This document shows, piece after piece, positions 11,620 through 15,554 of a stretch of 64,000 nt of DNA. The translations under genes and the position numbers were made by a program. This DNA is from an uncultured SAR86 cluster bacterium (lineage in GTDB: Bacteria; Pseudomonadota; Gammaproteobacteria; Magnimaribacterales; D2472). Under the pieces are notes generated by a model. That model had not been told where the DNA came from and searched no databases. It saw only the letters and a list, made by a program, of their open reading frames with translations. Positions within the stretch are counted from its first letter, which is position 1, and each line of letters starts with the position of its first letter. Location of the stretch: NCBI GenBank assembly GCA_964276235.1, contig CAXYEK010000002.1, positions 2,115 to 66,114 of the forward strand, in the 5' to 3' direction.

Positions 11620-12050
11620 TGATTGAAAAGAATATACAAAAATGGCATCAATTAATTAAGGGTGACTTTCCTGGAGGCTATGATGAGTTATTAGCTGACG
11701 ATGTCATTTTTTATTCTCCTGTTGTATTCACACCTCAAAAAGGAAAAGATTTAGCTAAGTTATATTTAATGGCAGCAGGAAATACTTTTGGTGGTGATGA
11801 ATCTAGTAACGAAGGCGAATTAAAAGATTCAAGTTTCCATTATACAAAAGAAGTTTTGAATGGAAGTCAGGCAATTCTAGAATTTGAGACTCAGATTGAT
11901 GGAAAATATATAAATGGAGTCGATATAATAACCTTTAATGACGAAGGCAGGATTTCAGAATTCAAAGTGATGATAAGGCCACTTCAAGCAGTTAATATTA
12001 TCCATATGCAAATGCAAAAAATGCTAGAAGAATTTAAAAACCATGAGTGA
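11619..12050 (+). CDS. SnoaL/NTF2-like protein
   Basis: LLADDVIFYSPVVFTPQKGK, INGVDII, EFKVMIRPLQA. Confidence 0.85.
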   Translation: MIEKNIQKWHQLIKGDFPGGYDELLADDVIFYSPVVFTPQKGKDLAKLYLMAAGNTFGGDESSNEGELKDSSFHYTKEVLNGSQAILEFETQIDGKYINGVDIITFNDEGRISEFKVMIRPLQAVNIIHMQMQKMLEEFKNHE

Positions 12051-12393
12051 TTATGTAATCTATCATAATCCAAGATGCAGTAAGTCTAGACAAACTCTAA
12101 ATATTCTTCAGGAGCATGCCTGTAATTATGAGATTTTCCTTTACTTGGAAATAAAGCTTACTAATTTAATTATTAAAGACTTATTAAAAAAATTGAACAT
12201 GAAGCCTAGAGATTTGCTTAGAAAAAGTGAATTAGATTTCAAGAATAATAATCTAGAGAGTGACATTCATTCTGATGAGGATTTGATAAATTTTATGATC
12301 AGATTCCCTAAAATTATTGAAAGACCAATAGTGATTAAAGAGAATAGGGCAGTTTTGGGCCGACCTCCTGAGAATGTTCTAGAGTTACTCTAA
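12043..12393 (+). CDS. arsC: Arsenate reductase (glutaredoxin) / ArsC-Spx family protein
   Basis: IYHNPRCSKSR, IERPIV, GRPPENV. Confidence 0.85.
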   Translation: MSDYVIYHNPRCSKSRQTLNILQEHACNYEIFLYLEIKLTNLIIKDLLKKLNMKPRDLLRKSELDFKNNNLESDIHSDEDLINFMIRFPKIIERPIVIKENRAVLGRPPENVLELL

Positions 12394-12777
12394 ATCTCCT
12401 TTTTCCCTTAATTCTTTTCTTATTTTTGTTGCACTAATTGAGTGTATTTGTTCATCAAAAATCTCTTCTTCAAAAACATATCCAACACCTCTTCCATAAG
12501 AAATATTAACAATATTTGGCACCATCATGATTTCGTATTCAATCCCTCTAGTATATCCATCTTTAGAAAGACCAATTTCGATATTTTTACAAACAACATC
12601 CCAATCAAAAGGATTATCGTCCTGTCCATCTCCTCCAGATGCGCCTGCAACATCTCTTACTTGTATTGCGACCTGCCCAGTTTTCGCAACACATCTTTTG
12701 AATAGCTCTTGATGGCCTTGATGCCATGGTTGCCATCTTCCTAACATTTGGACAGTTGGTTTTTTCCAATCAAACAT
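12385..12777 (-). CDS. Minimal HxGH nucleotidyltransferase (cytidylyltransferase-like/NadM-like)
   Basis: GRWQPWHQGH (HxGH), DNPF, ISATKIR (SxT/KMSK-like). Confidence 0.8.
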   Translation of the reverse strand: MFDWKKPTVQMLGRWQPWHQGHQELFKRCVAKTGQVAIQVRDVAGASGGDGQDDNPFDWDVVCKNIEIGLSKDGYTRGIEYEIMMVPNIVNISYGRGVGYVFEEEIFDEQIHSISATKIRKELREKGDLE

Positions 12778-13180
12778 TTTTTAATAGTTCCTGTGCAATT
12801 TCATTATGATTTTTATCATTCATTTCAGTTACGTGAAAGTCTACTTTTATAGGCTCTTCAAACATTTTATTAGTATCTTCAAAACGTCCTTCCTTAATAG
12901 TATTCATCCATATAACAATATCAGGATCAAAATTATCTTGAGTATCCTTTGTTGGGCAAACAAAGTCACATATAACTATTCTATTATTTTCTTTTTCAAA
13001 ATCAGCAAAAGTTCTCATTCTCATGCTCTGTCTAATTCTACCTTCTGGAGAAAAATCCCAATCATTTGCCATTTCTCTTACTTTATCAGCGTTATACCAT
13101 GCAGCTTCAAGAAGTGGCTGTAGTCTTTCTGCTAAGTAGGTCTTACCACTGCCTGGAAGGCCCATTATTAGTATTTTCAT
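12770..13180 (-). CDS. Minimal adenylyl-sulfate kinase (CysC)-like P-loop kinase
   Basis: GLPGSGKT P-loop, NADKVR (cf. DGDxxR), DWDFSPEGR (cf. DLGFSxEDR), FEEP; only 136 aa. Confidence 0.75.
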   Translation of the reverse strand: MKILIMGLPGSGKTYLAERLQPLLEAAWYNADKVREMANDWDFSPEGRIRQSMRMRTFADFEKENNRIVICDFVCPTKDTQDNFDPDIVIWMNTIKEGRFEDTNKMFEEPIKVDFHVTEMNDKNHNEIAQELLKNV

Positions 13181-13182
13181 TA

Positions 13183-14281
13183 TTATTTAATCTTTTTTAT
13201 TGCGAAGAGCTCATTTTTAAAATGCATTTTATCCTCTTTAGAGATAGCAAGACGAACTTTTTTTAACAAAGATGGATTTTTTTCAACTTCTTGAATATCT
13301 TTTTCAGGAATTTGACCAACATATAGAATATTTGCCCATTTAGCATCTAAACCATGACCAAAAAGCTCAGAAACTGTTTGATCAGGTATTCGCTTAAATT
13401 TAAAACTATATGACTTTGGTTTTGAAAAGGTATATCTACTATTTTCACCAACTGGATTATCCTGAAGATAATTAATTATATCTTTTCCTTTAGTTGGAAA
13501 AGGGTCTGAACCTTTCCAAACCTGACGAAGAATTCTTTCAACAGAATCGTCCCCACATGAATGAGTAACTAATAACTTACCAGATTTATTTAAAAGCCTC
13601 ATCAAAGGCCCAATAACATTATTAACTTTTACCTTAACACTTGATGCAGCCCTGTATGCCTGAGAGGCAATTATTAAGTCGTAGTTATTATCTTCATAGT
13701 CGTTATCAAGGAAAGGTTCTATATATCTTTTATGATCCTCTCTATAAATTCTAATTAAACATGGGTTTGAATATGAGGTTCTTGATTTTGAATCAATTTC
13801 TATACCCCAATATTTTTTGATAAAGCTTCCAAGGTTATTAATTTGTTGATGGAAATCAAAAGAATTATCAGCTTTCAATACCAGGTTATATTTTTTTATA
13901 TTTTTATCTTTTAATTTTTTTGAGTTTTCTATATGCCCAAGCTCTGCAAATTTAACATTCGTCATTGTAACCATCATATTAGGATGTTCTACGAATCTAT
14001 CTGGCATCTTGTCTAGGGTATTTTTAAGATCTTCATAACTAATTTCTTTACCGGTAATAAGTAATGAGGTGTATGGATGATACTTATGAAAACATTTAAT
14101 TAAGTTTGATTTAATCGTCCCATCACCAGTCCCGGCATCAAGAACTCTCATGAAAGTTTTGTTTTGAGCTAGACTTTTTATGTGGGGGTATAGCTCATTA
14201 GAAATGGCTCTTTTTTCGCCAGTATTTTGAATAAATGATAGAGTACTTTAATCTATCGTCAAAAAATCTTTTTTTCCCCAT
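13183..14281 (-). CDS. Class I SAM-dependent methyltransferase-fold protein of unknown function, interrupted by a single extra base near 14242 (artefact, pseudogene or recoding)
   Basis: VLDAGTGDGT motif I and GKEIS acidic motif. ATG at 14281 with SD AAGGGGG gives MGKKRFFDDRLKY; the +1 frame continues LSFIQNTGEKRAISNELYPHIKSLAQNKTF into the listed 322-aa ORF. Confidence 0.7.
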
Positions 14282-14390
14282 TATTCCCCCTTTTTATTAC
14301 TATATATTAATTTTTAAATACCTCAATAATGCATTTACGTATAGGTTATTTTGGGATTAAAATACTCTGAGATTACATAGGAGTATCTAA

Positions 14391-15554
14391 ATGTCAGAAG
14401 AAACAAAAATGCCTTTATTGATAGGTATTGGTGCAAGAATAAGAAAGTCACCATATTTCGACTCCACCATTAAATATGGAGTAACTGGTTTTACTATTTA
14501 CAATAAAATGTATCTACCTACAGGGTTTGCTGGTCCAGAAGCAGAATATAACAGCCTTATTAATGATGTAACTTTTGGTGACTTTGCAGCTGAAAGACAG
14601 GTTGAGGTATCAGGTCCTGATGCATATGATTTTGTAAGACTTATAACTCCTAGAAATCTTTCAAAATGTGAGATTGGTCATTGTAAATATATAATTTTGA
14701 CTGACCAAGATGGCGGTATTGTTAATGACGCTTGCCTGTTAAGACTAGAATTGGATAAATTTTGGATATCTCCTGGCGATGGTGATGTTTCATTATGGCT
14801 TCAAGGAATTGCAATTAATTCTGGAATGGATGTAAAGATACATGAGCCTGATGTCTCACCTCTTCAAATAAGCGGCCCTAAGGCTGGAAAATTAATACAA
14901 AAATTATTTAATGGAATCCATGACGACTTAGGCTATTACAAGGCTAGAGAAACAAAACTTGGCAATATACCAATGGTCATTGCTAGAACAGGTTGGAGTG
15001 GAGAGTTAAGTTATGAGCTCTATCTTCAAGATAGGAAATTAGGAAATGAATTATTTGAAATGGTATATGAAGCAGCTAAAGAATTTAATGCTGCAGTAAT
15101 AGCCCCTAACAACATTAGAACTATTGAGGGTGGTCTTCTTTCATATCAAAGTGATTTTGGTAGAGAGCATAATCCATTCACTATCGGGCTAGATAGGTTG
15201 GTTGATTTAGATCAGGATATTGATTTTATTGGTAAAGAGGCTCTAAAAAAGATTAAAGAAAAAGGAATTTCAAAAAAACTTATAGGACTTGAGATAGATG
15301 GAGATCCTATTTACAAGGTTCCAGAAAATTTTTGGCCAATATATGACGATAATGATAAAAAAATAGGCAGAGTATCTAGATGCGTATTTTCGCCTAGACT
15401 CAATAGAAATATAGGATTGGCAATAATTGATGTTGACCATTCTGAGCCAGGAAATCCTGTTTTAATTGAATCTCCCCGAACAGAACATAAATTAACTGCA
15501 AGAGTTCATGAGCTTCCATGGTTTCCCGCAGAGAAAAATACGAATCTAGATTAA
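14391..15554 (+). CDS. GcvT-family aminomethyltransferase, DmdA (DMSP demethylase)-like
   Basis: RIRKSPYF, YNKMYLP, AAERQVEVSGPDA, GGIVND, ARTGWSGELSYE, RTIEGGLLSY; SD AGGAG. Confidence 0.8.
   Translation: MSEETKMPLLIGIGARIRKSPYFDSTIKYGVTGFTIYNKMYLPTGFAGPEAEYNSLINDVTFGDFAAERQVEVSGPDAYDFVRLITPRNLSKCEIGHCKYIILTDQDGGIVNDACLLRLELDKFWISPGDGDVSLWLQGIAINSGMDVKIHEPDVSPLQISGPKAGKLIQKLFNGIHDDLGYYKARETKLGNIPMVIARTGWSGELSYELYLQDRKLGNELFEMVYEAAKEFNAAVIAPNNIRTIEGGLLSYQSDFGREHNPFTIGLDRLVDLDQDIDFIGKEALKKIKEKGISKKLIGLEIDGDPIYKVPENFWPIYDDNDKKIGRVSRCVFSPRLNRNIGLAIIDVDHSEPGNPVLIESPRTEHKLTARVHELPWFPAEKNTNLD

Follow-up and report, generated by a model that had tools for sequence, protein, structure and literature searches.

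Organization of the locus

The window analysed here is the whole stretch C2:2115-66114 (64,000 nucleotides, nt) from the genome of an uncultured SAR86 cluster bacterium, and it contains a compact group of genes for a methyltransferase (MTase), a small kinase related to adenosine 5'-phosphosulfate (APS) kinases and a very small nucleotidyltransferase (NT). The subject of this report is the pair formed by the last two, which is proposed to activate sulfate in the form of 3'-phosphoadenosine 5'-phosphosulfate (PAPS). The source genome (G000) comprises 1.22 Mb in 4 contigs. The features of the locus are as follows.

12385..12777, minus strand: mini HxGH NT of 130 amino acids (aa), proposed non-canonical ATP sulfurylase (open reading frame, ORF; function from context)
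12770..13180, minus strand: mini APS-kinase-like P-loop kinase of 136 aa that lacks the lid half; its proposed step is APS to PAPS (PF01583 and 2yvu matches)
13183..14281, minus strand: gene for a predicted class I S-adenosylmethionine (SAM) MTase resembling histamine N-methyltransferase (HNMT), of a 365-aa family, disrupted (homologues and AlphaFold2, AF2, fold; open frame only 13183-14151)
14241, minus strand: 1-nt insertion that frameshifts the MTase after codon 13 (two frames read; absent from the contigs of DNA runs)
14391..15554, plus strand: DmdA-like aminomethyltransferase of the GcvT family, divergent (PF01571 and PF08669; syntenic with the MTase, not with the pair)
12043..12393, plus strand: glutaredoxin-type ArsC, convergent neighbour outside the module (TIGR00014 116.8 bits, cut-off 106.05)

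A preliminary description of this DNA reported three closely spaced minus-strand genes, and the ORFs lie as it described: the MTase and kinase genes are separated by a gap of 2 nt, and the kinase and NT genes overlap by 8 nt. On the other side, the ArsC gene overlaps the 3' end of the NT gene by 9 nt. A scan of 12000-14600 found promoter-like sites at chance level (12, compared with 13.0 +/- 4.0 in shuffles) and no terminator-like site. Contigs of RNA run X15 cover 12300-14202, one of them spanning 12731-14202; coverage from an RNA library is no proof of transcription.

A conserved pair of genes

Conservation was followed in a family comparison set of 139 genomes in ten genera (g1-g10), 26 of them of high quality. 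The kinase is present in 118 of these genomes, in 24 of the 26 high-quality ones and in nine of the ten genera. Kinase and NT genes are adjacent in 12/12 loci from nine genera, with the MTase beside the pair in only four of the twelve. The preliminary description had joined all three genes and named their co-occurrence in related genomes as a check; the trio does not hold together, while the kinase-NT pair stands. The conserved unit at this locus is the pair, not a trio with the MTase.

A wider survey of one genome per species yielded 177 relatives, of which the best 80 loci were analysed and underlie the cellular counts out of 80 given below. These comprise 16 kinase-NT fusions, 48 loci with split but adjacent genes and 16 with the NT alone; the two BLAST matches are set at an identical 4-nt offset in 39 of the 48 split-adjacent loci. 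Taxa named in the records of these cellular relatives are Pelagibacteraceae, SAR116/Puniceispirillales, Marinoscillum, Woeseiaceae, Saprospiraceae and freshwater Bacteroidota, and the single-cell genomes SCGC AAA076-P13 and AAA168-P09 are taken here to be SAR86. The protein database holds 5822 longer NT matches, mostly kinase-NT fusions of ~255-285 aa with PF01583, and the kinase half is N-terminal in such fusions.

Sequence and fold of the kinase and the nucleotidyltransferase

The translations carry the motifs quoted in the preliminary description: GLPGSGKT, NADKVR, DFSPEGR and FEEP in the kinase, GRWQPWHQGH, NPF and ISAT in the NT. The Pfam model PF01583 (APS_kinase) matches the kinase at 29.1 bits, above its cut-off of 21.1, and because the match ends at model position 90 of 152, having begun at position 5, the C-terminal lid half is missing, in agreement with the earlier remark that this 136-aa protein lacks the lid segment. 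The NCBIfam models for CysC remain far under their cut-offs (NF004041, 34.3 vs 127 bits; TIGR00455, 23.4 vs 138.7 bits). The top sequence match in the PDB is the APS kinase 2yvu (E 4.7e-7), and the P-loop and the D..R / F[ST].E.R region align with the APS kinases 2yvu and 2gks. Residues D32, R35, G47, R48 and R50, which presumably have roles in the N-terminal substrate region of APS kinases, are invariant across 62 sequences. These similarities suggest a lid-less APS-kinase homologue, and phosphorylation of APS is proposed as its putative activity.

The NT has no Pfam family at E <= 0.1, including PF01747 and PF01507. Its HxxH motif reads H19-Q-G-H22, with both His residues invariant in 64 sequences; since this motif is common to the entire nucleotidyltransferase superfamily, it is no discriminator for Sat. 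Models of archaeal nicotinamide mononucleotide (NMN) adenylyltransferase (NMNAT/NadM) score far below cut-off (TIGR01527, 20.7 vs 181.2 bits; NF002243, 22.5 vs 127 bits), and the best sequence match in the PDB is the archaeal NMNAT 1f9a, at E 0.084. The closest PDB fold to an AF2 model of the NT (pLDDT 87.5) is likewise an archaeal NMNAT (1ej2; E 2.4e-3, TM 0.51, 88 columns), with phosphopantetheine adenylyltransferases (PPATs) next. The NT thus appears to be a trimmed HxGH nucleotidyltransferase outside the Sat, CysD and NMNAT families.

Absence of canonical sulfate activation enzymes

The preliminary description found no cysDN, cysH or sulfotransferase in the window, and none is there. For CysD/CysH the absence extends to the whole 86%-complete source genome, in which no Sat and no second APS kinase was found either, leaving the mini kinase as the sole APS-kinase-type gene found. 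PF01747 (Sat) has no match at E <= 0.1 in this genome, and its only, weak PF01507 match is ArgG. The genome nevertheless holds three sulfotransferases, including the 379-aa and ~670-aa TPR sulfotransferases, the nearest of the three at C2:73377-74111, ~7 kb beyond the window end.

The same pattern runs through the family. Sulfotransferases are encoded in 135/139 genomes and Sat in 0/139, so that 135 genomes carry PAPS-type sulfotransferases with no known PAPS source. PF01507 passes its cut-off in eight genomes and is strong only in G015 (190.4 bits); the other passes are a 197-aa PAPS_reduct protein in G075 and six more at 25-30 bits. The APS-kinase matches listed in the family, G015 apart, are all to the mini kinase, at <= 37.6 bits. 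The G075 protein (74.5 bits; L147:5983-6576) lies in a polysaccharide locus headed by the pair, where its gene adjoins NeuB and an Inositol_P gene.

The genome G015 (91% complete, 2 contigs) lacks the pair, of which it keeps a scar between the ArsC and MTase genes: the last ~28 codons of the NT gene. Instead it encodes a CysD (512.6 bits, cut-off 413) and a CysNC fusion (892.9 bits, cut-off 715), both of which pass equivalog/subfamily cut-offs. These cysD-cysNC genes sit between UvrC-PgsA and Ugd-Wzz, and the PgsA/Ugd-Wzz slot is the one in which genus g3 and G075 carry (KpsF)-kinase-NT. Heading a surface-polysaccharide locus, the cysD-cysNC genes of G015 are a non-orthologous replacement of the pair. 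The UvrC gene of the same region is split (L141:3453-5233) into a 228-aa N-terminal and a 215-aa C-terminal ORF with ~450 nt between them, and may be broken or mis-assembled.

Sulfur genes near the pair

In the wider survey, sulfotransferase genes cluster closely around the pair. Fourteen lie <= 2 kb from it, in 13/80 loci (286 kb examined), compared with none at 2-4 kb (231 kb) and two at 4-8 kb (374 kb). These neighbours belong to three Pfam families (PF13469, PF00685 and PF03567) and occur in at least six arrangements, found in SAR116, freshwater Bacteroidota, Saprospiraceae, two gammaproteobacterial types and alphaproteobacteria. Downstream of the fused gene, two SAR11-type loci carry an Inositol_P gene of the CysQ type, which would fit recycling of 3'-phosphoadenosine 5'-phosphate (PAP), together with a TauD gene. 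The pair also often heads surface-polysaccharide loci.

In other loci the NT stands without the kinase. Three such SAR116 loci have the order NT, 261-aa ORF, AprB, AprA, phosphoesterase, 116-aa ORF and canonical CysC (domains read in L085 only), and APS is the metabolite common to the enzymes of this run. Of six genomes with the NT alone, five have a stand-alone CysC of canonical type (222-230 bits), one has Sat and none has CysD. The lone NT of Marinoscillum/Cytophagales (L063-L082) belongs to a conserved set of sulfur-flavoured character that includes a divergent group II pyridoxal phosphate (PLP) decarboxylase, an EEP-family phosphatase/nuclease, an HD protein, a thioredoxin-like protein and an MBL-rhodanese fusion.

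Relatives in viruses

The preliminary description mentioned mini kinase/transferase pairs from marine phages, and the pair is indeed found in viral sequences. The phage family phrog_10255 spans both the kinase and NT halves, and the fused gene was found in phages of Xylella, Stenotrophomonas, Xanthomonas and Clavibacter. In phage records (Xylella, Stenotrophomonas and others) its neighbours are early genes and genes of nucleotide metabolism, none of them clearly a sulfur partner. At least 585 viral stretches in IMG/VR are relatives, with T4-like contexts; 80 of these loci were viewed, with domains scanned in cluster representatives only. Phage neighbours of the pair include genes for GT25 and FkbM methyltransferase.

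Two further genes recur in the viral loci. A predicted DUF2061 membrane protein of ~70 aa occurs in 13/80 of them (including L219:5827-6039), directly after the fused gene in a viral representative; it is also present in four cellular loci (L041, L042, L077 and L110), in L077 between the kinase and the NT. A second CTP_transf_like nucleotidyltransferase (~156 aa, PF01467 42.7 bits) occurs in 14/80 viral loci (including L214:4538-5008), directly upstream of the kinase-NT fusion in a representative.

A proposed sulfate activation module

Taken together, these observations point to a two-gene sulfate activation module that produces PAPS, a reading to which we assign a probability of roughly 0.7. 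The preliminary description had suggested a module that adenylylates and then phosphorylates its substrate, and this is supported, most simply as a stripped-down PAPS synthase, by the fusions, the neighbourhoods, the phyletic complementarity and the cysD-cysNC replacement. In the proposed mechanism, the NT would be an NMNAT-like HxGH member reduced to its nucleotide-binding core that adenylylates sulfate (ATP + sulfate -> APS + PPi, pyrophosphate). The lid-less kinase would then convert APS to PAPS by phosphorylating its 3'-OH, and it is proposed that the unfavourable adenylylation of sulfate is thereby pulled forward. The PAPS may supply the three sulfotransferases of the genome, probably for a sulfated surface polysaccharide. 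Since the NT lies outside Sat and CysD homology, we infer its ATP-sulfurylase chemistry, as well as the direction of its reaction, from genomic context.

The proposed two steps are those of PAPS synthase, as in metazoan PAPSS1/2, and of Sat-CysC fusions such as that of Aquifex (2gks), in which a nucleotidyltransferase fold with an HxxH motif and an APS kinase are often one chain, as in the fusions of the pair. The domain order of PAPSS, with the kinase N-terminal, is also that of the kinase-NT fusions. Unlike PAPS synthase, the NT has only 130 aa, lacks PF01747 and is closest to NMNAT, and the kinase of 136 aa has neither the lid half nor any accompanying PUA-like or regulatory domain. The CysD-CysN(C) system appears to be functionally interchangeable with the pair, to judge by the shared polysaccharide-locus slot in G015, but CysD belongs to the PP-loop ATP pyrophosphatases and works with a GTPase, and the NT has neither. 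With archaeal NMNAT/NadM (1f9a, 1ej2) the NT has in common the GRxQPxHxGH, NPF and ISxT motifs and a probable HxGH Rossmann-like core, and its best fold match is there; it differs in length (130 residues vs 161-169, with 88 aligned columns) and in a genomic context of sulfur rather than NAD (nicotinamide adenine dinucleotide) genes.

Several observations weigh against sulfate activation. The similarity of the NT to Sat or CysD is undetectable, its nearest relatives being NMNAT and PPAT, and in the fold search the Sat chain 2gks comes no higher than 47th. In genus g10 (3 genomes, 70-89% complete) a sulfotransferase occurs without the pair, canonical APS kinase, CysD or Sat; a profile search (A2) for a divergent pair in this genus gave only weak matches, at E 4.2e-6 and weaker, which are not convincing. 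One NT-bearing genome, G141, has Sat in addition. Viral neighbours are mostly non-sulfur genes, with an adjacent sulfotransferase in 1/80 loci as scanned in cluster representatives. The genomes used for comparison are mutually related and many are incomplete, so that the counts overstate independence. Finally, no SulP sulfate permease was found in the source genome, and two of the 25 genomes of its genus have one; the available portions of an earlier study likewise state that SAR86 assemblies lack sulfate-uptake enzymes (Dupont et al., 2012; PMC3358033).

The pair is a strong candidate for a new ATP sulfurylase class. Two enzyme types, Sat and CysDN, are regarded as the basis of sulfate activation, and to our knowledge published descriptions of SAR86, SAR11-type and SAR116 bacteria have them lacking sulfate assimilation genes. 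The full-text literature that was searched, a body that leaves subscription journals outside its coverage, yielded in the portions seen no description of the pair or of an ATP sulfurylase other than Sat and CysD. On balance we favour the wider view that the 130-aa NMNAT-derived NT represents a third, independently evolved ATP sulfurylase class in SAR86, SAR11-type and SAR116 bacteria, that it provides PAPS for sulfated cell-surface polymers and closes AprBA sulfite oxidation in SAR116, and that T4-like ocean phages, in which the fused form is numerous, may use it to reprogramme host sulfation. If this is true, a new class would be added to the ATP sulfurylases, the orphan sulfotransferases and the orphan CysC and AprBA genes of highly abundant ocean bacteria would be explained, and a gene on at least 585 viral contig stretches would gain a meaning. 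The pair would also be the smallest known PAPS-regenerating module for biotechnology.

Alternative readings

An unlikely alternative is that the pair makes some other 3'-phosphorylated, nucleotide-activated donor, with the NT adenylylating or cytidylylating another oxyanion or a phosphate ester and the kinase acting on the ribose 3'-OH. An analogy exists in the CysC-like cytidine diphosphoramidate kinase of Campylobacter capsule modification. The missing lid half and the low CysC score (34.3 vs 127 bits) would fit such a role, as would the position of the pair at the head of surface-polysaccharide loci and its GT25 and FkbM methyltransferase neighbours in phages. However, the neighbours of the pair handle APS or PAPS (three sulfotransferase families, a CysQ-like protein, AprBA and canonical CysC), and the exchange of the pair for cysD-cysNC in G015 would be left unexplained.

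It is quite unlikely that the three genes and the DmdA-like gene form one pathway, for example to a methylated and sulfated small molecule; the preliminary description had tentatively extended the module in this direction, to a methyltransferase and possibly to organosulfur/C1 demethylation. In favour of this, MTase, kinase and NT genes are adjacent with the 2-nt gap in genera g1, g4, g8 and g9, and the single RNA-library contig noted above reaches from the NT into the MTase gene. The MTase is also near a BCCT transporter, a sulfotransferase with TPR repeats and a homocysteine S-methyltransferase in 5/8 g5 loci. Its distribution does not follow that of the pair. It was found in 78/139 family genomes (g1 18/24, g4 7/7, g5 9/32, g6 6/9, g8 1/1, g9 36/41) and in 0/24 genomes of g2, g3, g7 and g10, while the pair is present in 19/21 genomes of g2, g3 and g7; four of ten genera thus lack the MTase, three of them having the pair. 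Where both are present they are often unlinked, as in g5, in g6 and in G124, G105, G102 and G075, the last four of which keep the MTase beside the CIA30 and DmdA-like genes with the pair elsewhere. A BLAST search for an MTase homologue beside the pair outside SAR86-type loci found none, all ten of the 80 loci with one being SAR86-type. Two adjacent clusters, of 366 and 471 aa, which had looked like possible kin of the MTase turned out to be a sulfotransferase and a PLP decarboxylase.

A role in NAD salvage is very unlikely. Here the NT would be a minimal adenylyltransferase for NMN or nicotinic acid mononucleotide (NaMN) and the kinase would act on a nucleoside or nucleotide, in a NadR-like arrangement. 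The archaeal NMNAT/NadM matches of the NT (1f9a, 1ej2) and its GRFQPFH-type motif, NPF and ISxT agree with this, but 20.7 bits stand against a cut-off of 181.2, and only 88 columns align of NMNAT chains of 161-169 residues. The kinase resembles APS kinase and not ribosylnicotinamide kinase, the neighbours show sulfur genes and no NAD genes, and the genome has NadK and a CinA-nucleotidyltransferase fusion of its own. The latter joins CinA (PF02464) to a cytidylyltransferase-like domain in 367 aa (G000:C1:801448-801930; L005:1489-2592) and may be an NMN deamidase/NaMN adenylyltransferase; a PDB sequence search with this protein gave no match. Two related candidates were set aside: coenzyme A (CoA) synthesis by a PPAT and a dephospho-CoA kinase, for which the genome already has canonical CoaD (186.8 bits) and CoaE (168.4 bits), and an NAD kinase function leading to NADP, for which it has NadK. 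With CoaD, CoaE, NadK and the CinA fusion available, synthesis of CoA and NAD(P) does not require the pair.

Least probable, and very unlikely, is a true APS kinase that receives APS from elsewhere beside an NT that degrades APS or PAPS or runs a reverse, ATP-recovering reaction: the NT does sit with AprBA in SAR116 loci, where the sulfurylase runs in reverse (the AprBA route leads from sulfite to APS and on to sulfate and ATP), but that reverse reaction would still be ATP-sulfurylase chemistry, and the SAR86 locus showed no AprBA, while SAR86 yielded no other source of APS.

The methyltransferase and the DmdA-like gene

Homologues of the MTase have 365-367 aa and the N-terminus MGKKRFFDDRLKYLSF. 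In the window this N-terminus starts at ATG 14281, and the 1-nt insertion at 14241 puts it in another frame than the rest of the gene. The frame that remains open begins at 14151 and encodes 322 aa without the nearly invariant residues F6, D8, R10, Y13, F16, E22 and K23. The spacer of ~110 bp to the DmdA-like gene given in the preliminary description needs the start at 14281; counted from the open frame, the spacer is 240 nt. Among the MTase matches listed, from 78 genomes, the source genome is the only one with an internal stop. RNA run X15 gives no cover at 14241, and the extra base is absent from the contigs of 3/3 DNA runs from three studies (X1, X3 and X5). The break in the MTase can thus be put down to an assembly error or to a rare variant. 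Contigs of X1 and X5 also show one added C after 14283, just 5' of the MTase start codon.

An AF2 model of the MTase (pLDDT 87) has human HNMT (1jqd, E 7e-11) as its best PDB fold, and the fold search gave at least 500 PDB matches at E <= 0.001, the best 33 all being methyltransferases or proteins of that fold. Motif I reads ILDAGTGDG, and Pfam PF13847 scores 23.2 bits, under its cut-off of 27. The MTase is thus predicted to be a class I small-molecule methyltransferase. It shares the fold of HNMT at only 11-13% identity to HNMT chains, and differs in its own conserved N-terminal motif, RFFD.R.KYL.F, and in having no Pfam or NCBIfam model above cut-off.

The surroundings of the gene vary by lineage. 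In g5 (L124-L128) it lies in a run consisting of the BCCT transporter, the TPR-sulfotransferase, the homocysteine S-methyltransferase, a small ORF, the HNMT-like MTase, a cupin and a PEMT-like methyltransferase, and in g6 loci it adjoins a prolyl oligopeptidase. We read the MTase, which synteny links with methyl and osmolyte genes, as a methyl- or osmolyte-related enzyme and a lineage-specific neighbour of the pair; the g5 sulfotransferase may connect it with sulfation.

The DmdA-like protein scores 339.3 bits with NF009133, below the DmdA cut-off of 410. Its best PDB match is the Pelagibacter protein 3tfh (E 7.1e-79, 268.8 bits), which we take to be DmdA. The SAR86 gene is named dmdA in the portions seen of the earlier genome study (Dupont et al., 2012; PMC3358033).

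Two minor observations concern genes around the pair in other genomes. The only two SulP genes of the genus (G126:C2:248692-249753 and G131:C8:16370-17431) lie 11-13 kb from the pair, and both genomes that bear them are without the MTase. In one gammaproteobacterial clade (L060 and L102), a membrane protein of the alkaline-ceramidase family (PF05875) is encoded directly upstream of the pair.

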